A DNA stretch of 30,999 nucleotides, taken from assembly GCA_030529405.1 (NCBI GenBank), contig JAUMWZ010000002.1, forward strand, positions 1 through 30,999. The letters run 5' to 3'. Each line of letters begins with the position of its first letter. Position 1 is the stretch's first letter. The notes under the pieces are model-generated. The model ran no database searches, was not told the origin of the DNA, and saw only the letters and a list, made by a program, of their open reading frames with translations. The translations under genes were made by a program, and so were the position numbers. Below are positions 1 through 30,890 of this stretch, piece by piece. This stretch comes from Bacteroides sp. (GTDB lineage Bacteria > Bacteroidota > Bacteroidia > Bacteroidales > Bacteroidaceae).

Positions 1-131
1 AAGTCGTAATGTTTCACACTTGTTTGAGCAGAGCGAGCTTGTGAAACATAGACTTGACGGCAACAAACGGCAAACGGACACACGGGCGAAACCTTTTCTT
101 GGTTCTTATTTTCGGTTCTGAAAAGAAGAAC
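1..131. other. Structured non-coding segment at the window edge (two hairpins), possibly part of a REP/MITE-like element
   Basis: AAGTC(1-5)/GACTT(51-55) plus ATGTTTCACA(9-18)/TGTGAAACAT(40-49); second hairpin GTTCTT-A-TTTTC(102-113)/GAAAA-G-AAGAAC(120-131). Truncated by the window start. Confidence 0.35.
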
Positions 132-237
132 ATTACTGATAAAAGGAGAAGAAAAGAAGAAATGAAAAGAAGAACATTTACAAAGAAAAAGGAAAGACGA
201 GAAAGAAGAAAATATTATATATAAAAACAGCTTTCTA

Positions 238-361
238 AATGATATACAGCTGATTTGTAAAACGTATATCATTTAGATATAAAATATATACAGTTTGGAA
301 ATTGACTATATACAGTTTGGTTGTAAACTATATATAGCTTAGGAACCAACTGTGTGTTGTT
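238..361. repeat. 22-bp-period palindromic array A (6 units, last degenerate)
   Basis: Units start at 238, 260, 282, 304, 326, 348 (e.g. GACTATATACAGTT, AACTATATATAGCT); spacers gatttgta, tagatata, tggaaatt, tggttgta, taggaacc. Confidence 0.9.
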
Positions 362-8002: not shown

Positions 8003-8151
8003 ATATACATCTCTCGTCTTGAGTGTCTTTATATAGAGTATGAATATAGTTGCCCATTTCCTGCTTTATGCAATCTTTCAAAGCTAGGACTATATTCTTT
8101 CAAGGGAAATAATAAACGCCACCTCCAAATACTGTTTGCCTCCATTTCCTA

Positions 8152-8231
8152 AACCATATACAGTTGAGTTGCAAACCGTATATAGTCAATAAACAAACTA
8201 TATATAGTTTAGAAATCAACTGTATATAGTC
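8152..8231. repeat. 22-bp-period palindromic array B (4 units)
   Basis: Units at 8152, 8174, 8196, 8218 (AACCATATACAGTT, AACCGTATATAGTC, AACTATATATAGTT, AACTGTATATAGTC); spacers gagttgca, aataaaca, tagaaatc. Confidence 0.92.
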
Positions 8232-8325
8232 TGCAAAACGGTTGTGAATACTTTTTTTGCACTATTACTTATTCTTTTGGTTATAAAGAGTTATATTCGC
8301 CATCAAATTAAAAAAACAGTGTGAA

Positions 8326-10434
8326 ATGAAAAAGATTAACGTTTTTATTATGTCTGCTATTATTATGACTACTTCATCTTGTGTTGGTGGGGCAAAGTCG
8401 TCTGACTCTTCTAACGGAGTGTTAATTGAAAAGTCGAATATCAAGATAGAAAACAAGCGTATGTCTCCTGAAGCTCTTTGGGCAATGGGAAGAATTGGCG
8501 ATTTTGCAGTATCGCCTGACGGCAAGAAAATAGCATATACGGTGGCTTATTACAGTGTTGCTGAGAACAAGAGCAACAGAGAAGTGTATGTTATGAATGC
8601 TGACGGAACAGACAATAAGCAAATCACTAAAACAACACACCAAGAGAGCCAAGTGGCATGGATTAAAGGGGGTGAGAAGATTGCATTCTTGAGTAATGAG
8701 TCGGGTAGCAACCAAATATATCAAATGAATGCTGACGGTAGTGCAAGAGAACAGCTTACTAGCTATGAGGGTAATATTGAAGGCTTTTCATTCTCTCCTG
8801 ACGAAAAGAAGTTGATGTTTATATCTACCGTGAAAACCAAGGCAGAAACATCGGCAATGTATCCAGACCTGCCAAAAACAACAGGTATGATTATTACTGA
8901 CCTTATGTATAAACATTGGGACGAGTGGGTTACAGAAGCACCTCACCCTTTCGTTGCTGACTTCGACGGTAAGTCTATAAGCAACGTGGTTGATGTTCTT
9001 CAAGGCGAACCTTATGAAAGTCCTATGCGTCCGTTCGGTGGAGTTGAGCAGTTGGCGTGGAGCAATGACGGCAAAGAAATAGCATATACTTGCAGAAAGA
9101 AAATAGGACTGGAATATGCGTTATCTACAAACTCTGACATATATGTATATAACTTAGAGTCAAAGGAAACACGCAACATAACTGAAGAAAATAAAGGTTA
9201 CGACACAAATCCGCAATACTCGCCAGACGGTAAACATATTGCTTGGCTTAGTATGGAAAGAGATGGGTTTGAAGCAGACTTAAACAGATTGTTCGTTATG
9301 AATGTTGAAACGGGTGAGAAAACATTCGTAAGCGACAAGTTCGAGTCAAACGTAGACCAATTTGTATGGACAAAAGACTCTAAGGGCTTTTACTTTGTTG
9401 GCGTATGGCACGGACTTAGCCACATATACTCTCTTGACATAGCAACAAAAGAGATAAAGCAACTAACACAAGGTCAGTATGACTATGTTGCTGTTTCTCA
9501 TTTGGGCGACCAGCTGATAACAAAGAGACACTCGATGAGTGAAGCTGACGAACTGTTTGCGGTAAATACAAACGGCGAGGTGAGTCAGCTTACTAAAGAA
9601 AACAGTCATATATACGACCAAATTGAAATGGGTAAGGTTGCGCCTCGTTGGGTTAAGACTACTGACGGAAAAGATATGCTTGTGTGGGTTATATTCCCTC
9701 CACAATTCGACCCAAATAAGAAGTATCCAGCTATACTTTATTGTCAAGGAGGACCACAAAGTGCAGTGAGTCAGTTCTGGTCATACAGATGGAATATGCA
9801 AACTTTTGCTGCTAAGGACTACATTATTGTTGCTCCTAACCGTCGTGGACTACCGGGATTTGGCAAAGAATGGAACGAACAGATTAGTGGCGACTATGGT
9901 GGTCAGTGTATGAGAGATTATTTCAGTGCAATAGACGAAGTGGCTAAGGAAAGCTATGTAGACGAAAACCGTCTTGGTGCAGTAGGTGCCAGCTTCGGAG
10001 GCTTCTCTGTTTACTGGCTAGCAGGCAATCACAACAAACGTTTCAAAGCATTCATTGCTCACAATGGTATATTCAACATGGAAATGCAATATCTTGAAAC
10101 AGAAGAAAAATGGTTTGCAAACTGGGATATGGGTGGTGCTTATTGGGAAAAAGACAATAAAGTGGCACAAGGCACATTCGCTAACTCTCCGCACAAGTTT
10201 GTAGACAAATGGGACACACCTATTCTATGTATTCACAGCGAAAAAGACTATCGCATTCTTGCAAATCAAGCTATGGCAGCCTTTGACGCCGCTAAGTTGA
10301 GAGGTGTACCAGCTAAGATGCTGATGTTTCCAGACGAAAACCATTGGGTGCTTAAACCACAGAATGGTATCTTATGGCAAAGAGTGTTTGCCGATTGGCT
10401 TGATGAATGGCTAAAAGACGATGCAAAGAAGTAA
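8326..10434 (+). CDS. S9 family (prolyl oligopeptidase / acylaminoacyl peptidase-like) serine peptidase, probable lipoprotein
   Basis: Lipobox-like TSSC; PD40/WD-like propeller repeats (FAVSPDGKK, PQYSPDGKH); catalytic GASFGG, HSEKDYR, PDENHW. Confidence 0.92.
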   Translation: MKKINVFIMSAIIMTTSSCVGGAKSSDSSNGVLIEKSNIKIENKRMSPEALWAMGRIGDFAVSPDGKKIAYTVAYYSVAENKSNREVYVMNADGTDNKQITKTTHQESQVAWIKGGEKIAFLSNESGSNQIYQMNADGSAREQLTSYEGNIEGFSFSPDEKKLMFISTVKTKAETSAMYPDLPKTTGMIITDLMYKHWDEWVTEAPHPFVADFDGKSISNVVDVLQGEPYESPMRPFGGVEQLAWSNDGKEIAYTCRKKIGLEYALSTNSDIYVYNLESKETRNITEENKGYDTNPQYSPDGKHIAWLSMERDGFEADLNRLFVMNVETGEKTFVSDKFESNVDQFVWTKDSKGFYFVGVWHGLSHIYSLDIATKEIKQLTQGQYDYVAVSHLGDQLITKRHSMSEADELFAVNTNGEVSQLTKENSHIYDQIEMGKVAPRWVKTTDGKDMLVWVIFPPQFDPNKKYPAILYCQGGPQSAVSQFWSYRWNMQTFAAKDYIIVAPNRRGLPGFGKEWNEQISGDYGGQCMRDYFSAIDEVAKESYVDENRLGAVGASFGGFSVYWLAGNHNKRFKAFIAHNGIFNMEMQYLETEEKWFANWDMGGAYWEKDNKVAQGTFANSPHKFVDKWDTPILCIHSEKDYRILANQAMAAFDAAKLRGVPAKMLMFPDENHWVLKPQNGILWQRVFADWLDEWLKDDAKK

Positions 10435-10460
10435 ACTGTGCATATAACACACCGTTTCTA

Positions 10461-10540
10461 AACGATATATTGTTTGGAAGTTGGTTATATATAAATTGGG
10501 AGCAAACTGTATACAGTCTGCTCCCAATTTATATATACTC
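10461..10540. repeat. 22-bp-period palindromic array C (4 units)
   Basis: Units at 10461, 10483, 10505 (AACTGTATACAGTC), 10527; spacers tggaagtt, tgggagca, tgctccca. Confidence 0.85.
10486..10537. terminator. Near-perfect 52-bp palindrome between convergent genes; probable bidirectional terminator
   Basis: TATATATAAATTGGGAGCA(10486-10504)/TGCTCCCAATTTATATATA(10519-10537) around the palindromic core ACTGTATACAGT. Confidence 0.65.
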
Positions 10541-10581
10541 AGTTTTTGAGTTGTAATTGTGTTATTTCAAAGACGATATTC

Positions 10582-12771
10582 CTACTTAGCAAAAAGCAGT
10601 TCTCTGTACTTCGGCAATGGCCATATTTCGTCGTCAATCTCTAGCTCTAAGTGGTCTATGTGATCTCTTATTTCGTCAAGATAAGGCTTAACTTTTTCTT
10701 CATACATAAAGGCTTTCTCTTTGTGGTCTTTTAGTTTGTTTGCCTCTTTTCTAGTCTCTATCATGTCGTGTACTAACTGTTTTATTGCAGTTACTCTACG
10801 AGATATTTCCCTAACAAGGTCTTTTCTGTCCTTGCTTATTGCTTCATATTCGTCTGTGTCAAATATCTTTTTTAGTCCAATCAAGTTTTCTAAAAGTCTG
10901 TTTTGATAAGTCACAGCAGTTGGAACGATATGATTTATAGCCAAATCTCCAAGCACACGACTTTCAATTTGTACTTTCATAGTATACTTATCAAGCTCAA
11001 CCTCAAGCCTACTTTTTAACTCCACTTCGTTGAAAATCTGCTCTCCTATCAGCACACTCTTAGCCTGTTCGTCAGTCAATTTAGTAAGAGCCTCCGGCAC
11101 ATGACATATATTTGTCAGTCCTCTGCGCTTTGCTTCGTCTCTCCATTCTTGAGAATATCCGTCGCCTTCAAACCTTATCGGCTCAGACTCTATTATCAGC
11201 TCTTTCAGTACCTTAAATATAGCTTCGTCTTTATTCATACCGTTTTCTATCAAGCCTAAAACGGTTTTATTGAACTTGTTTAGTTGGTTTGCCATAGCGG
11301 CATTTATAACTATCATCGCAGCAGCACAGTTTGACGATGAACCTGCTGCTCTAAATTCAAATCTGTTGCCTGTAAATGCAAACGGAGATGTGCGGTTTCT
11401 GTCGGTCGTGTCTAGTAGTATGTCTGGCAATCTCCGTATTCCCAACTTCAAGGTTGTCTTTTCTTCTGGTGTCATCTTGCTATCGCCAACCTGACGGACA
11501 ATGTCATCAAGAATAGTAGAAAGCTCTCTTCCGAGGAAACATGATAATATTGCTGGCGGAGCCTCACTAGCACCAAGGCGGTAACTATTGCCTGCACTCG
11601 AGATAGATGCTCTTAGCAAATCTTGATTCTTATATACCATCATGAGTGCATTAACAAGAAACGTCAAGAAAAGCATATTGCCCTTTGGATTCTTTCCAGG
11701 AGCAAACAGATTTATTCCGTTATCAGTGCATAGCGACCAGTTATTGTGTTTGCCCGAACCATTAACACCACTGTAAGGCTTTTCGTGAAGAAGTACGTTG
11801 AACTTATGCTTTTGTGCAATCCTTTTCATCAAATCCATTACAAGTTGGTTATGGTCATTTGCCAAGTTGCAATTCTCGAATATAGGAGCAAGTTCAAATT
11901 GGTTTGGAGCCACTTCATTATGTCTTGTCTTGGCAGGTATACCTAGTTTGTGGCATTCTATTTCTACCTCTTTCATAAAAGCAGTAACTCTTGGCGGGAT
12001 AGAACCGAAGTAATGGTCTTCTAGCTGTTGGTCTTTTGCCGATGAATGACCCATAAGTGTTCTGCCAGTTAAACACAAATCGGGGCGAGCATTATATAGT
12101 GCAGAATCTACTAAGAAATACTCTTGTTCCCAACCTAGGTTGGTGTACACTCGAGTGACGTTTTTATCAAACAACTGACATACATCTGTTGCGGCTTTAT
12201 CTACTGCAGCCAATGCCTTTAGTAATGGAGTTTTGTAGTCTAAGGCTTCTCCTGTGTACGATATGAATATAGTAGGGATACACAAAGTGTTATCCACCAC
12301 GAAGGCAGGTGAAGATACGTCCCATGCTGTGTAACCTCTTGCTTCGAAGGTGTTTCTTATTCCTCCGTTTGGAAAAGAAGATGCGTCTGGCTCTTGTTGA
12401 ACAAGAAGTTTTCCCGAAAATCTTTCTATCACTCCTCCATCGTCAGATATTTCTATGAATCCGTCGTGTTTTTCTGCTGTTCCGTCTGTCAATGGTTGAA
12501 ACCAGTGTGTGTAATGTGTTACGTTCAAAGACTTCGCCCAGCTTTTCATACCGTTAGCTATCAAGTCTGCCATTTCTCTACTTATGGGTGTTCCTCTCTC
12601 CACAGCATCGACCACAGCTCTATACGCTTCCTTTGGAAGATATTCTTGCATCTTCTTTCTGTCAAACACATTCATTCCATAGTAGTCTGATATTTTGTTA
12701 GAAGGAGGTGTTACTTCTAACGGTTTTCTATTAGATAGCTCTTTAAGAGCAAAGAATCTCATTTCTGACAT
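10582..12771 (-). CDS. glnA: Glutamine synthetase type III
   Basis: 729 aa; THYTHWFQPLT..TAEKHD, EPDASSFPNGG, GWEQEYFL, HNEVAPNQFE, HEKP..GVNGSGKHNNWS, DRNRTSPFAFTGNRFEFRA, WPLPKYRELLF. Confidence 0.96.
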   Translation of the reverse strand: MSEMRFFALKELSNRKPLEVTPPSNKISDYYGMNVFDRKKMQEYLPKEAYRAVVDAVERGTPISREMADLIANGMKSWAKSLNVTHYTHWFQPLTDGTAEKHDGFIEISDDGGVIERFSGKLLVQQEPDASSFPNGGIRNTFEARGYTAWDVSSPAFVVDNTLCIPTIFISYTGEALDYKTPLLKALAAVDKAATDVCQLFDKNVTRVYTNLGWEQEYFLVDSALYNARPDLCLTGRTLMGHSSAKDQQLEDHYFGSIPPRVTAFMKEVEIECHKLGIPAKTRHNEVAPNQFELAPIFENCNLANDHNQLVMDLMKRIAQKHKFNVLLHEKPYSGVNGSGKHNNWSLCTDNGINLFAPGKNPKGNMLFLTFLVNALMMVYKNQDLLRASISSAGNSYRLGASEAPPAILSCFLGRELSTILDDIVRQVGDSKMTPEEKTTLKLGIRRLPDILLDTTDRNRTSPFAFTGNRFEFRAAGSSSNCAAAMIVINAAMANQLNKFNKTVLGLIENGMNKDEAIFKVLKELIIESEPIRFEGDGYSQEWRDEAKRRGLTNICHVPEALTKLTDEQAKSVLIGEQIFNEVELKSRLEVELDKYTMKVQIESRVLGDLAINHIVPTAVTYQNRLLENLIGLKKIFDTDEYEAISKDRKDLVREISRRVTAIKQLVHDMIETRKEANKLKDHKEKAFMYEEKVKPYLDEIRDHIDHLELEIDDEIWPLPKYRELLFAK

Positions 12772-12802
12772 AATACTACCTTTATTTTATGTTTATAGCG
12801 TG

Positions 12803-12810
12803 CAAAAGTA
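12803..12810 (-). promoter_or_regulatory. -7 promoter element for glnA
   Basis: TACTTTTG on the minus strand, about 32 nt upstream of the start. Confidence 0.55.
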
Positions 12811-12994
12811 TTTGTTTTCTATGAAATACCCCTAAAATATAAGGGTTCTTTTCAGAAATAGTATGATTTTTCTTCTTGATACCCCTTTTGTGTGGTGGCT
12901 GGTAAACTTTGATGAATATATATAGTTAGCATGATAAATGTGTCAGTTGTATATAAATTAGGCACAATTTTGTTATTATAAAGCCTTTTATTTA

Positions 12995-13002
12995 TACCTT
13001 TG
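12995..13002 (+). promoter_or_regulatory. -7 promoter element for the hypothetical at 13029
   Basis: TACCTTTG. Confidence 0.55.
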
Positions 13003-13028
13003 ATAAAAATAATGTTTGGAGGGTTTAT

Positions 13029-13475
13029 ATGATGTTCAAGGAAAGTACAATTAAAAAGATTAAAGAAGCTATTAAGCAGGCTATATCTGTCTACACTTCG
13101 TCAGATATAGAATTTATTCACACTGATATTTACATTCAGGCAGACAGATTGCTTGGTGAGTTGAATTTCAGTAACGATGAAGATGCAGAACTATATTCTG
13201 TAAGCATAGGAGAATTGAAGTCTGACACTCTAGAGGGCTATTACGAAAACTTAGAAGATGAATTGCGTAGCATTTTGGAAGATATGTATTCGGAATCAGT
13301 CTTTGATAAAGTGAAAATATCTACTCCTTACTCTTTCGTATTGATAGACGAAAACAAGGAAACAATATCTGACCTTTTGTTGATAGATGATGACACTGTT
13401 GTTCTTAACGGCGGACTTTTGAAAGGTTTAGATAAAGAGTTGGACGACTTTTTGAAGAACCTTTTAGAATCGTGA
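13029..13475 (+). CDS. Acidic conserved hypothetical protein (Bacteroidales type)
   Basis: 148-aa ORF with its own promoter box; C-terminus PYSFVLIDENKETISDLLLIDDD...LKGLDKELDDFLKNLL resembles, from recall, a Bacteroides-conserved hypothetical family. Confidence 0.8.
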   Translation: MMFKESTIKKIKEAIKQAISVYTSSDIEFIHTDIYIQADRLLGELNFSNDEDAELYSVSIGELKSDTLEGYYENLEDELRSILEDMYSESVFDKVKISTPYSFVLIDENKETISDLLLIDDDTVVLNGGLLKGLDKELDDFLKNLLES

Positions 13476-13713
13476 TGTGAATAAAACAGCAATAATATCT
13501 CTATGTGGCTTGCGGTGTGCAATTACTCTGTGGGCAACGTAGCAGGTGTTTTTGTTTGTTGTTTTTTATTCCCTCCTTATAAGTGTTACATTCTTGAATC
13601 TCTCTAAACATTCATTCTAAGTCGTTTATGCTTATATGTCACATGTAGATGTACTGTGATATGTAACACCGTTATATACACTCTCTTGTTATGTCTTTAT
13701 CTGTTTTCTAACC

Positions 13714-13815
13714 ACCTGTATTAAGTCATTTTCTAATTTATATACAACTGACTTGCAAATAATATATAGCTGACTTCTAAACCATATATAGTTTGTTTAT
13801 TGACTGTATACAGTT
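13714..13815. repeat. 22-bp-period palindromic array D (5 units, first degenerate)
   Basis: Units at 13714, 13736, 13758, 13780, 13802 (GACTGTATACAGTT); spacers attttcta, gacttgca, gacttcta, tgtttatt. Confidence 0.9.
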
Positions 13816-13910
13816 TGCAAAGCGTGTTTTCTTAACCTTTATCTGAGATAATAATATTCAATAGAAAAAATATATGCTTTTTGTGTTGCTATGATGCAAA
13901 CAAAAAAACT

Positions 13911-15722: not shown

Positions 15723-15800
15723 TTGTCGTGTTTTGAAGTATTGTTGTCTTAGTTGTTGATTATGAATGTGTTATCTCTTTGTGTGAATGCTGGTTTTGCA

Positions 15801-15880
15801 AACAATATATTGTTTGCAAGTCAGCTGTATATAATTGACTTCTAGACTGTATATAGTTTAATTGTTAGCTGTATATGGTT
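15801..15880. repeat. 22-bp-period palindromic array E (4 units)
   Basis: Units at 15801, 15823, 15845 (GACTGTATATAGTT), 15867; spacers tgcaagtc, gacttcta, taattgtt. Confidence 0.92.
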
Positions 15881-15923
15881 TGAAGTGGAGGGAATAATGT
15901 CTTTTGTTAGCCGTATAAACAAA

Positions 15924-17964: not shown

Positions 17965-17997
17965 TGTTGTACATAAATATTATTTAATCGGAAAATC

Positions 17998-18099
17998 AAC
18001 TGTATATAGTTGGAAAATCAGTTATTTATAGTTTGCAAGTCAGCTGTATATGTTTTGCAAATAGACCGTATATGTTTTGCAAAATGTGTATATATAGTC
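17998..18099. repeat. 22-bp-period palindromic array F (5 units)
   Basis: Units at 17998 (AACTGTATATAGTT), 18020, 18042, 18064, 18086; spacers ggaaaatc, tgcaagtc, tgcaaata, tgcaaaat. Confidence 0.92.
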
Positions 18100-21091: not shown

Positions 21092-21171
21092 AAGTATATA
21101 TGATTTACTTCTTAGCTATATATGGTTTGCAAGTCAGCTGTATATGATTTAGAAATTGACTGTATACGGTT
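21092..21171. repeat. 22-bp-period palindromic array G (4 units)
   Basis: Units at 21092, 21114, 21136, 21158 (GACTGTATACGGTT); spacers tacttctt, tgcaagtc, tagaaatt. Confidence 0.9.
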
Positions 21172-21226
21172 TACTTTTGCCTTGTGTAATATCTCTGATT
21201 ATGTGATGTTTACTGTGTTGCGTGTG

Positions 21227-21859: not shown

Positions 21860-21961
21860 AGTTGTAAATGTCTGCTTTGCAAACTGTATACAGTTGTTGT
21901 CTAAACTGTATATAGTTAGTTTTCTGATTATATACAGTTTGTTTCTTGACCATATATGATT
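21860..21961. repeat. 22-bp-period palindromic array H (5 units, first degenerate)
   Basis: Units at 21860, 21882 (perfect palindrome AACTGTATACAGTT), 21904, 21926, 21948; spacers gctttgca, gttgtcta, agttttct, tgtttctt. Confidence 0.92.
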
Positions 21962-25135: not shown

Positions 25136-25155
25136 TGATTATCAGTCTGTTTGCA

Positions 25156-25235
25156 GACTATATATCATTTAGAAATTGACTGTATATAAATTGAAAGTTG
25201 ATTGTATATAACTGACTTCTAATTTATATACAGTT
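25156..25235. repeat. 22-bp-period palindromic array I (4 units)
   Basis: Units at 25156, 25178, 25200, 25222; spacers tagaaatt, tgaaagtt, gacttcta. Confidence 0.9.
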
Positions 25236-25465
25236 TTCTTTTTATGTGATAATACCCCTTTTCTGTGCGTATGTCATCATAGAATTATAATCTACTTATC
25301 CACTATTCCATCTAAAAACATCTGTCTTGCAAACCCCCTCTATTGGTGTGATAATTAGTTGTTTCACTAATAAAACTATTCTTCGTTTCGACATCTATAC
25401 TATATAATATGCGTTTTATGCAACAAAAAAAGAGCAATAAGTGTTGCTCATTAAGAAATTAGTGC

Positions 25466-26337: not shown

Positions 26338-26417
26338 AGTTGTTAATAGTTCGTTTTTCAGCTGTATATGGTTTGCTTCTAAACTGTATATACTCTATTT
26401 GTAAACCATATATGGTT
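26338..26417. repeat. 22-bp-period palindromic array J (4 units, first degenerate)
   Basis: Units at 26338, 26360, 26382, 26404 (AACCATATATGGTT); spacers cgtttttc, tgcttcta, tatttgta. Confidence 0.88.
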
Positions 26418-26648
26418 TGTTTTGCCGTTGTGTGTTGGGCTCTCAACAATATGTTATAACTCGATTTTTCGTGATTAAACTTGCTGTGCAAAACGATATG
26501 TCAAAGTTATGCGGTTGATGAATGGTTTGCAATAGCAATAAATAATGATTTTAGAGTGAAAGTCAGATTGTTATAGCGTGATATCGTTACTTCTTGTAGC
26601 AGATAGTGTTCGATGTGTTTTTATTCTTAGAAGAAAAAAGTCTTTGAT

Positions 26649-26972: not shown

Positions 26973-27062
26973 TCTTGTGTAGATTGCTGGCTCGTCTTAA
27001 ATTTATCTTTTCTTTATTTTTTCTATTCAGATTGTTTTTAGGCGTGTTTTTGTCTGTTCTCA

Positions 27063-27164
27063 GACTGTATATTGCTGATATGTAAACTGTATATTATCTG
27101 GGATTAAACTATGAATAACTGAAAAATAGATTATATACAGTTTGGAATATGATTGTATATGGTT
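27063..27164. repeat. 22-bp-period palindromic array K (5 units)
   Basis: Units at 27063, 27085, 27107, 27129 (GATTATATACAGTT), 27151; spacers gatatgta, tgggatta, gaaaaata, tggaatat. Confidence 0.88.
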
Positions 27165-27223
27165 AATTTATGTGTTTTGTATAGTCCCTTTCACTGCTGT
27201 ATGTTAGTTTTCAGCAAGACCAA

Positions 27224-29843: not shown

Positions 29844-30890
29844 ATGAAATCAGTTCTATATTACTTTGTTTTCACACTGTATTTACTTGTGTCGCAAACT
29901 GTATATTGCCAAAAAACAGACTCTATACAGTTTAGAATAATGTCGTGGAACGTTGAAAATCTGTTTGATACAAAACACGACACACTAAAGCAAGACTATG
30001 AGTTTTTGCCAGATACTCTCAGGCGTTGGACAAATACACGTTACAGGAAGAAACTCAAAGATATAGCAACGACTATTGTGTCTGTTGGCGAAATGATACC
30101 ACCGTCTTTGGTGGCACTCTGCGAGGTTGAAAACGAAAAGGTGATGAACGACCTTACAAAGTATTCTCCGCTAAAGAAGATGGAGTATGATTATGTGATG
30201 ACAAACTCTAAGGATTTGCGTGGAATAGATGTTGCACTGCTCTATCAGCGAGCAATGTTTAACCTCATAGAAAGCAGATCTATACGGATAGGTAAGTTTG
30301 ATGATTACCCACCTACAAGAGATGTTCTGCATGTTTCGGGCAGAGTTCTGTCGGGTGATACCCTAGATGTGTTTGTCTGCCATTTACCGTCACGCCGTTT
30401 GGGATATAAGCGTTCAGAAAGATATAGGACACACGTTGCCAAAACGATAAAGACTTATGCCGACAGCATAATGAATATAAGGCAGATACCTAATATTATC
30501 CTTATGGGCGACTTTAACGCTACACTTACCGACCCTTGCATCTGCAAAGCACTGTCTGCAACTCCAACTTCCAAATACACAACCGATAAAGACAAAACTC
30601 TGTTTATTCTCCAACCCAAAGAGTATGGCAGTATCAAGATTGGTACATACAAGTATCGTGGAGAGTGGGAGTTTATTGACCATATAATCATCAGTGGCAG
30701 AATGCTTAACGATAAAAACAAGGTTAAGTATGTAAAAGATAGTGGCAGACTGTCTAAACTCGATTTTTTGTTAATGCCAGACGAAAAGTACAACGGTGTT
30801 CAGATGAACAAAACCTATGTTGGGTTCAGATATAAAGGCGGTATAAGCGACCACCTGCCCGTATGTGCTGACTTCGTCATACACTTCTAA
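29844..30890 (+). CDS. Endonuclease/exonuclease/phosphatase (EEP) family protein, probably secreted
   Basis: SWNVENLFD, LCEVEN, GIDVALLY, TRDVLHV, HLPSR, MGDFN, SDHLPV. Start at MKSV (29844); the ORF-track start 29784 lies inside the pepD terminator. Confidence 0.9.
   Translation: MKSVLYYFVFTLYLLVSQTVYCQKTDSIQFRIMSWNVENLFDTKHDTLKQDYEFLPDTLRRWTNTRYRKKLKDIATTIVSVGEMIPPSLVALCEVENEKVMNDLTKYSPLKKMEYDYVMTNSKDLRGIDVALLYQRAMFNLIESRSIRIGKFDDYPPTRDVLHVSGRVLSGDTLDVFVCHLPSRRLGYKRSERYRTHVAKTIKTYADSIMNIRQIPNIILMGDFNATLTDPCICKALSATPTSKYTTDKDKTLFILQPKEYGSIKIGTYKYRGEWEFIDHIIISGRMLNDKNKVKYVKDSGRLSKLDFLLMPDEKYNGVQMNKTYVGFRYKGGISDHLPVCADFVIHF
29875..29932. repeat. 22-bp-period array M inside the EEP gene N-terminus (3 units)
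   Basis: CACTGTATTTACTT(29875), AACTGTATATTGCC(29897), GACTCTATACAGTT(29919), followed by the family-type spacer tagaataa. Confidence 0.7.

Follow-up and report, generated by a model that had tools for sequence, protein, structure and literature searches.

Probable occasional copying of blocks among 22-bp phased palindrome arrays dispersed through a Bacteroides genome

Short intergenic arrays of a palindromic unit, repeated at a rigid 22-bp period, are dispersed through the 1.66-Mb MAG of a Bacteroides species (GenBank assembly GCA_030529405.1), and some of these arrays share ordered blocks of several units. True multi-unit sharing exceeds chance about 2–3 fold and concerns few arrays; it is a tail effect and not the general mode by which arrays are built. 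The arrays discussed individually (Table 1) lie in the window, a stretch of 30,999 nucleotides at positions 1 to 30,999 of contig JAUMWZ010000002.1, which is contained in 19 public runs. A first-pass annotation of this window, made from its sequence alone, had read the arrays as mosaics assembled from a limited repertoire of units and spacers inserted in either orientation, comparable to the BIMEs of enterobacteria.

The family comprises about 2,000 units in ~1,000 arrays, and array sequence accounts for ~2.6% of the assembly. The 14-bp palindromic unit AACTRTATAYAGTT alternates with 8-bp spacers, which follow the pattern TRNAARTM in one orientation or the other. The consensus of the 22-column profile is AAACTRTATAYAGTTT, with no GTAG or CGTC tetranucleotide head at either end of the unit. 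Consecutive units are spaced by 22 bp in 799 cases, by 44 bp in 135, by 23 bp in one and by 21 bp in none. Arrays contain 2–7 units, with a mode of 3–4 detected units. About 77% of the gaps of at least 200 bp between genes hold a unit (estimates range from 76 to 85%), and 450 of 485 arrays lie outside predicted ORFs, in tandem, convergent and divergent gaps. Units and spacers show no orientation bias relative to gene strand, and the orientation of a unit is independent of the neighbouring spacers. About 65% of array ends carry an outward-facing TGCAA (TTGCA...TGCAA), followed by a degenerate unit and, by ~25 bp, by background sequence. Restriction avoidance was considered as a reason for the GTATAC deficit; the ratio of observed to expected GTATAC is 0.53, similar to other palindromes.

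The two half-sites of the unit vary independently, with no hairpin covariation: at none of the seven positions do Watson–Crick pairs between mirrored bases exceed the number expected under independence. The perfect G..C form of the unit was observed 75 times compared to ~147 expected. No Rfam family matches the arrays, and no matching arrays turned up in 150 further genomes from the same taxonomic family or in 80 metagenome loci of relatives that carry an orthologue of the S9 peptidase of the window (69–75% amino-acid identity). Among the genomes searched, the family was seen only in this genus. None of the 80 loci has a DUF4332 gene upstream or glnA downstream of the peptidase gene, and their gene order is unlike that of the window. 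An exact-protein look-up of orf148 gave no match.

Table 1. Palindrome arrays of the window, with the block of array B that is common to array D
Feature	Positions	Strand	Remarks
Array A	274–347		directly adjoins a copy (1–214) of another dispersed repeat, unrelated to the arrays
Array B	8144–8239		4 units, cores at 8153, 8175, 8197 and 8219; spacers GAGTTGCA, AATAAACA, TAGAAATC, TGCAAAAC; DUF4332 gene on one side, S9 peptidase gene on the other
Block of B common to D	8169–8217	+	two units plus two and a half spacers, one of them the rare AATAAACA
Array C	10453–10526		convergent gap between S9 peptidase gene and glnA; no close relative genome-wide
Array D	13714–13823		apparent mosaic; left-hand units degenerate
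Array E	15793–15888		family member
Array F	17990–18083		family member
Array G	21106–21179		module 21141–21166 (half-unit, spacer TAGAAATT, half-unit) matches array I
Array H	21874–21947		between HD-domain gene and SBF transporter gene
Array I	25148–25243		25161–25186 pairs with G
Array J	26352–26425		family member
Array K	27055–27172		five detected units
Array L	29867–29940		overlaps an ORF start

The three matches counted by hand in the first pass proved exact: 45 of 49 positions between B 8169–8217 and the reverse complement of D 13772–13820, 25 of 26 between G 21141–21166 and I 25161–25186, and 21 of 22 between H 21874–21895 and the reverse complement of D 13802–13823. The 52-bp blocks of B and D, in arrays 5.6 kb apart, are reciprocal best matches among ~1,060 blocks of the genome (46 of 52 positions). 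They reach a log-odds score of 15.5, for which three shuffling nulls predict 0.012 to 0.051 occurrences in the 55 array pairs of the window. The spacer AATAAACA fills only 4 of 1,957 spacer slots genome-wide (0.2%), and B and D hold two of these four. The reciprocal best matches and the shared rare spacer together indicate that B and D are real relatives. The other two matches are individually unremarkable, since they lie within the background rate of the genome: the G–I pair (score 13.2) and the H–D pair (score 13.8, joining GCTTTGCA plus one unit at the end of H to the end of D) each involve a single module, and 0.34 and 0.24 such pairs, respectively, are expected per 55. Array D resembles two different sequences. 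Positions 13730–13794 match C101:894–958 at 88% on the same strand, and positions 13772–13820 match B at 92% on the opposite strand. In an alignment of B, D and an array at C83:7874 the order of spacers is kept. Judging from these alignments, the three arrays form one related group and D appears to be a mosaic of two sources.

Sharing of blocks was assessed genome-wide by an all-versus-all comparison of 101,025 array pairs, measured by a log-likelihood score (LLR), against three null models. Units and spacers were shuffled independently in one, arrays were cut at spacer centres in another, and in the third they were cut at unit centres, leaving each spacer with its two half-palindromes intact. 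At LLR values of at least 16, 18 and 20 we found 116, 36 and 17 real pairs, compared to 15, 2.3 and 0.7 under the independent null, 37, 10.7 and 3.3 under the spacer-centre null, and 61, 16.7 and 5.7 under the unit-centre null. The finding named beforehand as contrary to copying was a frequency of shared blocks no higher than that of random draws; high-scoring pairs are instead 5 to 15 times commoner than random draws of units and spacers. Most of the excess over the independent null consists of recurring single 22-mers, that is, a spacer plus its two half-palindromes. The excess of the unit-centre null over the independent null shows that spacers are linked to the variants of their flanking half-units. 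Constraint on spacer types, and not descent, could explain why the unit-centre null exceeds the spacer-centre null. Ordered spacer pairs recur 36 times compared to 16.4 ± 3.6 expected. The bulk of array pairs fits the nulls, with a mean of 59.7 identical bases of 96 against 58.9.

Similar arrays also tend to be neighbours. Of 684 pairs on the same contig, 3 reach an LLR of at least 18 where 0.22 are expected (p = 0.0016), and 8% of pairs less than 1.5 kb apart score at least 12 compared to 1.4% overall. Near-identical arrays occur on contigs C13 and C107. On C13, a whole array (1601–1715) recurs 815 bp away (2416–2530) between unrelated flanks, with 97% identity across 115 bp. The second of these copies may be flanked by a 6-bp repeat, TAGTCT; this is one isolated case, and its boundaries are uncertain.

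In line with the first pass, recent local tandem expansion is not the origin of the arrays: units of one array agree at 10.41 of 14 bases, no more than units taken from different arrays do (10.49 of 14). The first-pass suggestion of shared ancestry or gene conversion in either orientation holds for some arrays, namely the group of B, D and C83:7874, the apparent mosaic D, and the arrays on C13 and C107; as a general mode of building it does not, the tail excess being 2–3 fold. The counts do not support a small set of modules: the 1,596 units include 546 different sequences, the 1,111 spacers include 446, and 1,466 of the 1,507 ordered spacer pairs are distinct. Some spacer types are nevertheless preferred, with 248 distinct oriented spacers where 316 are expected and the spacer TGCAAGTC over-represented about five-fold (54 occurrences compared to 10.6). 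A full-length master element is likewise not apparent: identity between arrays is 0.62 in register and 0.60 when slid by one unit, and a single-profile EM search for a 4-unit master element returned only the generic consensus. The flanks give no signal of target-site duplication, as the longest direct repeat common to the two sides averages 4.61, compared to 4.58 in shuffled flank pairings. A search for RAYT genes (PF01797, Y1_Tnp) found no match in this 77%-complete assembly. Because no small module set, master order, RAYT gene, hairpin covariation or target-site duplication was found, the likeness to BIMEs does not extend to membership.

Repeats dispersed between genes have been studied extensively in Proteobacteria (REP/BIME, REPIN-RAYT); to our knowledge they have barely been described in Bacteroidales, a dominant gut order. 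REP/BIME elements serve as docking sites for DNA-binding proteins. Plasmid iterons are direct repeats of 17–22 bp, about 22 bp apart, that bind Rep at a single origin. The present arrays resemble iterons as short arrays of repeats phased at two helical turns, with protein binding being a property of iterons and a putative one of the Bacteroides arrays; they differ from iterons in their palindromic units and in their ~1,000 chromosomal sites. With the REP/BIME of Enterobacteria (PMC3733652) they have in common abundant extragenic palindromic repeats, clustered in arrays and found in both orientations. The REP/BIME unit has a GTAG or CGTC tetranucleotide at one end (PMC3733652), whereas the Bacteroides family lacks this head, stem-loop covariation, a small linker set and a regular alternation of unit orientation, and keeps a rigid 22-bp register. 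BrickBuilt, the minisatellite MITE of Porphyromonas gingivalis (PMC4596501; Klein et al. 2015), is similar as a species-restricted intergenic element of Bacteroidales with an internal short-period tandem array of imperfect repeats. It consists of 23-nt direct repeats without spacers, in 1 to 23 copies, with leader and tail segments bearing IS5-type terminal inverted repeats, and 19 copies are present per genome (PMC4596501). The Bacteroides family has instead 22-bp palindromic units, 2–7 per array, no leader or tail, and ~1,000 arrays. A 77-bp inverted repeat element of P. gingivalis was also considered as a relative and rejected as an unrelated single-locus feature.

The closest resemblance in period and core is to arrays of Porphyromonas gulae DSM 15663, which have an exact 22-bp period, a palindromic unit with core YTRTATAYAR, a spacer with a TTTT/AAAA centre in either orientation, and 4–5 units, and which are intergenic and dispersed. 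The P. gulae arrays differ in their arms (GATYT...ARATC), in being about five times fewer, in having five units in 24 of 26 arrays, and in lying inside an element of ~330 bp with conserved flanks that include the palindrome TGGAATSATTCYA and a GC-rich hairpin. Their master-copy structure is evident from an identity of 0.80 between units at the same position compared to 0.70 at other positions, in contrast to the 0.62 and 0.60 of the Bacteroides arrays, which have no conserved flanks and no master order. The P. gulae arrays are probably the "22 nucleotide tandem direct repeats" of P. gingivalis W83, which appear without locations where PMC4596501 cites Nelson et al. (2003). In two other genomes, G032 and G033, a DUF6078 gene adjoins a 22-bp array with other palindromes, and no paper on such DUF6078-linked arrays was found in the literature. 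These arrays of Bacteroidales are like the present ones in their exact 22-bp period, palindromic units, count of about four units and lineage-specific unit sequence; they differ in that the copy number in the present Bacteroides is far higher and no DUF6078 gene was found there. By its period, short arrays, intergenic position and lineage specificity the present family belongs with the 22-bp phased palindrome arrays of Bacteroidales; a home copy beside a DUF6078 gene was not found in the 77%-complete assembly.

These results lead us to consider it fairly probable that the arrays are old and constrained, form candidate docking sites for a protein, and are subject to occasional duplication or patch conversion. 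Most arrays would have diverged to a limit set by constraint on double-stranded DNA, which would preserve the TATA core, both half-sites and the exact 22-bp register. Since 22 bp make up two turns of the helix, with an AT-rich dyad every 11 bp, the arrays could provide a lattice on which a dimeric DNA-binding protein docks. Occasional copying between arrays, in the form of whole-array duplication or gene conversion of short patches, would proceed in either orientation and more often between neighbours. The conserved cores would supply the homology, so that the travelling piece would be a spacer with its two flanking half-palindromes, singly or in runs of two to four, and conversion tracts would end in the cores. 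DUF6078 (PF19555), the candidate partner of other 22-bp arrays, had no match in the 77%-complete assembly, nor in P. gulae, and the canonical HU gene, on C217, is not followed by an array.

Several other explanations can be weighed against this one. It is unlikely, in our assessment, that the arrays are MITE-like mobile elements, transposed whole from active copies and then decayed, with the shared blocks as remnants of common sources. Such transposition would fit the duplicate on C13 with its unrelated flanks, the expansion in one lineage and absence from 150 genomes of the family, the outward-facing terminal spacers, and the P. gulae cousin, a defined element with position-specific units that looks like copies of one master. 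It is at odds with the missing target-site duplication signal, the lack of a master order, and ends that appear to trail off into degenerate units instead of stopping sharply. Under neutral decay to 62% identity, indels would moreover be expected, yet the register is intact; three arrays are also unchanged by gain or loss across four strains. No DDE_3 or IS630-type transposase was found in the 77%-complete assembly, where the single DDE_Tnp_1 gene found has an internal stop, and among multi-copy coding fragments from self-BLAST, of which the longest ORFs were read, there were no obvious transposases. A BIME-like origin, in which a REP-associated tyrosine transposase builds and spreads arrays from few oriented units and linkers, is suggested by abundant palindromic extragenic arrays in both orientations; the lack of a Y1_Tnp match, of stem covariation and of the GTAG/CGTC head, the independence of unit orientation from the neighbouring spacer and the hundreds of distinct spacers make it very improbable.

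The absence of any copying, with shared blocks arising as coincidences among draws from a constrained consensus with favoured spacer types, is already disfavoured and strikes us as improbable. The fit of the bulk of pairs to the nulls, the background-level matches of G with I and H with D, and the preferred spacer types shown by the excess of TGCAAGTC all speak for it. Against it stand the excess that survives all three nulls, the linkage of spacers to half-unit variants, the spacer common to B and D that occupies 0.2% of slots, the near-identical arrays on C13 and C107, and the enrichment of similar pairs on the same contig. Finally, contig overlaps of exactly 55 bp and the frequent location of contig ends in arrays might suggest that the mosaics arose as artefacts of assembly, when chimeric paths were taken through repeats in a de Bruijn graph with k = 55. 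With differences at 4 of 49 positions, B and D have no common 55-mer, and independently assembled Logan contigs, from samples of four other studies, span C, D and E. These arrays keep their place and length there, and across the four strains, ~1% diverged, no gain or loss of arrays was detected at C, D and E, only point differences. We regard an artefact as having almost no chance of being the explanation.

The reading of old, constrained arrays with rare core-mediated copying and otherwise mostly independent evolution argues against active transposition and tandem slippage and favours a function at the level of double-stranded DNA. The family is extreme in density and geometry, with the register kept (a single 23-bp spacing) despite 38% sequence divergence. 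We tentatively speculate, as a possibility still in doubt, that the arrays form a genome-wide docking lattice for a candidate DNA-binding protein, a chromosome-organising or insulating system that occupies about three quarters of the sizeable gaps in the genus, with the two-turn register under selection and the variable spacers swapped between sites in 22-bp cassettes through recombination at cores that do not vary. If this were true, the lattice, the P. gulae family and other 22-bp families would represent an undescribed class of protein-and-array systems across Bacteroidales.

The arrays also have a practical consequence in that they break short-read assemblies. Contig ends lie inside arrays in 19% of cases compared to a background of 4.4%, so the most similar array copies probably break the assembly. 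Apparent joints in the Logan contigs were considered as rearrangements and rejected, as they represent other arrays of the genome mapping onto arrays of the window. The Logan contigs themselves break at B, F, G and I.

The window is contig C207 of a MAG (G000; 1.66 Mb, 247 contigs, 37% GC, 77% complete) that contains 2,006 occurrences of the core ACTRTATAYAGT with at most two mismatches. Of the core-to-core spacings, 799 measure 22 bp and 135 measure 44 bp, compared to a single one of 23 bp and none of 21 bp, and the cores chain into 1,058 arrays, most commonly with three or four detected units and rarely with more than five. The window has 13 arrays of 22-bp period, all intergenic except one that overlaps an ORF start. 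Across G000, the unit is present in 43% of the gaps of 100–199 bp and in 76–85% of those of at least 200 bp; arrays occur in tandem, convergent and divergent gaps alike, and neither spacers nor units show an orientation bias with respect to the flanking genes.

The entire 22-bp period is symmetric, combining the unit AAACTRTATAYAGTTT with an A/T-centered spacer (oriented pattern T-R-N-A-A-R-T-M), which places AT-rich dyads every 11 bp. Mirrored positions of the unit change independently, chiefly via transitions, Watson–Crick pairing between them is nowhere above expectation, and the perfect G..C form is found about half as often as expected (75 vs. ~147). Independent variation of the two arms with no excess of pairing shows that the constraint acts on double-stranded DNA rather than on a hairpin. 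One strain, from another sample, has lost 1 bp in array H and gained 1 bp at a distance of 7 bp, so that the 22-bp register stays intact.

The first-pass annotation proposed that the arrays share ordered blocks, a claim to be refuted if such blocks were no more frequent than random draws of units and spacers give, and that they are mosaics built from a small set of modules. All in-register alignments of 450 arrays (101,025 pairs, both orientations) were scored by log-odds with conserved columns discounted, and the scores were compared with three null models, of which the one cut at unit centers preserves each spacer together with its two half-palindromes.

Number of array pairs reaching each alignment score in G000 and under the null models
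Data	≥12	≥14	≥16	≥18	≥20	≥22
Real pairs	1419	395	116	36	17	6
Units and spacers shuffled independently	444	87	15	2.3	0.7	0
22-mers cut at spacer centers	698	146	37	10.7	3.3	0.7
22-mers cut at unit centers	1122	271	61	16.7	5.7	2.3

Block sharing among the arrays is real, as the observed pairs exceed random draws of units and spacers (116 vs. 15 at scores ≥16), and a simple identity count concurs (116 block pairs with at least 44/52 identities vs. 11.7). The bulk of the sharing consists of single spacer-centered 22-mers that recur; ordered multi-module runs exceed chance 2–3 fold, and this only among the highest scores, where they make up a few dozen pairs. Exact ordered spacer pairs occurring at least twice number 36, compared to 16.4 ± 3.6. 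There is no small module set: the 1,111 spacers fall into 446 different sequences and the 1,596 units into 546, with the spacer TGCAAGTC as the sole over-represented standout (54 copies vs. 10.6 expected). A full-length master element or order is also absent: in-register identity is 0.62 vs. 0.60 when the arrays are slid by one unit, and 1,466 of the 1,507 ordered spacer pairs are unique. Whole 4-unit arrays are on average 62% identical, and nearest neighbors reach 74% vs. 72% in shuffled data.

Within the window, the earlier hand counts proved exact for arrays B and D (45/49, D in reverse complement), G and I (25/26), and H and the reverse complement of D (21/22). The last two pairs each comprise a single module and lie inside the G000 background rate. 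Among all G000 blocks, B and D are each the other's best match. For their score of 15.5 the null models predict 0.012–0.051 occurrences among the 55 array pairs of the window, and they hold two of the four G000 copies of the spacer AATAAACA. Together with an array on contig C83, B and D have a common spacer order (nnnTTGCA, AAnAAACA, TAnAAnTC, TGCAA/TAGAA) over 3–4 units. Array D is a mosaic, its left part being 88% identical to a segment of contig C101 on the same strand and its right part 92% identical to B on the opposite strand.

Recent tandem expansion can be excluded, because units are no more alike within arrays (10.41 of 14 bases) than between arrays (10.49), and the earlier rejection of local tandem expansion thus stands. 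The claim that some arrays are related by ancestry or conversion likewise holds, for B, D and the C83 array and for copies on contigs C13 and C107, which are among the best pairs. On C13 a whole array is duplicated 815 bp apart in direct orientation, with 97% identity over 115 bp and unrelated flanks; on C107 a partial copy lies 1.25 kb away. The C13 copies bracket one small minus-strand gene, one being upstream of the gene start and the other between the stop and the terminator hairpin. High scores (≥18) are enriched on the same contig (3 vs. 0.22 expected, p = 0.0016), and 8% of the pairs less than 1.5 kb apart score ≥12, compared to 1.4% overall. Contig ends of G000 fall inside arrays in 94 of 494 cases, a fourfold excess over the expected 4.4%, so the copies closest in sequence are probably concealed by the assembly, and the figures for sharing would be a lower bound. 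Neighboring contigs overlap by exactly 55 bp, and 100-N scaffold gaps are bordered by identical 55 bp on both sides; these gaps and overlaps are assembly conventions, not biology.

The proposed likeness to BIMEs, the enterobacterial mosaic repeats, fails along with the small module set, and no RAYT, the transposase linked to such repeats, was found in G000 (77% complete). An IS630-type transposase was not found there either, and the single DDE gene found contains a stop. Neither target-site duplications nor sharp ends were found at the arrays, which grade into degenerate units, and about 65% of the array ends carry an outward-facing TGCAA. Arrays C, D and E are unchanged in place and length in contigs from four other studies' samples, which are ~1% diverged from the window. 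Conserved cores probably mediate array duplication or patch conversion, events that would be rare and mostly local.

The unit is absent in 30 relatives, in 150 further genomes from 35 genera of the family, and in 80 loci that represent the nearest relatives in metagenomes. When 185,579 species genomes were scanned for exact matches to three phased YTRTATAYAR cores, one further genome proved rich in them, that of Porphyromonas gulae DSM 15663, with 118 three-unit windows vs. 534 in G000. Its arrays have unit arms GATYT...ARATC, and 24 of the 26 contain five units. With their conserved flanks they form a ~330 bp element in dozens of copies (loci L085–L122), comprising the conserved palindrome TGGAATSATTCYA, ~90 bp of sequence, five TATA-core units of 22 bp each, and a GC-rich hairpin that resembles a terminator; no description of it was found in the literature searched. 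The P. gulae units are position-specific (identity 0.80 at the same position vs. 0.70 at other positions), and this family appears to have been copied whole from a master, unlike that of G000. In P. gingivalis W83, 22-nt tandem repeats were reported and never located (PMC4596501); BrickBuilt is an element with a 23-nt repeat (PMC4596501) and differs from the 22-bp family. The best reading is that the G000 family is old and, among the searched genomes, restricted to this lineage, and that its 22-bp register is probably kept by a constraint on double-stranded DNA, which we infer to reflect the docking of protein along a single face of the helix.

Two other genomes, a Tannerellaceae MAG and Ca. 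Bacteroides avicola, have a DUF6078 gene with an array of 22-bp period, made of other palindromes, directly after it. A DUF6078 gene was not found in G000 (77% complete) or P. gulae, a literature search found no mention of DUF6078, and the HU gene of G000 has no array downstream. In Ca. Bacteroides avicola the TATA-core pattern is matched over three units (≤2 mismatches) at four places. One of these has an HD-domain gene on one side and an SBF transporter gene on the other, the same pair that flanks array H. This shared setting could be a coincidence, since so many G000 gaps are filled.

Coordinates of the features discussed (C, contigs of G000; L, loci of compared genomes except L081)
Feature	Sequence	Positions
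Array B, block shared with D	window	8169-8217
Array D, block shared with B	window	13772-13820
Match to left part of D	C101	894-958
Array with the B/D spacer order	C83	7874
Duplicated array	C13	1601-1715, 2416-2530
Paired indels in array H	window	21918-21925
Array H region compared with L092	window	21860-21956
HD-domain/SBF match, Ca. B. avicola	L092	5397-5450
Array after DUF6078, Tannerellaceae MAG (TTCTCAT..ATGAGAA)	L132	1354-1460
Array after DUF6078, Ca. B. avicola (TGTTAC..GTAACA)	L133	1403-1477
100-N gap, example	C73	5418-5517
100-N gap, example	C106	2024-2123
~590-bp repeat	window	1-214
~590-bp repeat	L081 (G000:C212)	~1440-2030
148-aa ORF	window	13029-13475

A second dispersed non-coding repeat of ~590 bp, which has long inverted arms rich in AGAAGAA as well as an inner inverted pair, matches no Rfam family; its copies are 85–97% identical, occur on at least 15 G000 contigs, and often lie at contig ends and right next to a 22-bp array. 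The 148-aa ORF between glnA and array D is without a Pfam family, an exact match on record or a tblastn match in 80 relatives' loci, and may not be a gene. The sequence GTTAAC is nearly missing from G000 (11 vs. ~263 expected), a scarcity that suggests a restriction system specific for this hexamer.
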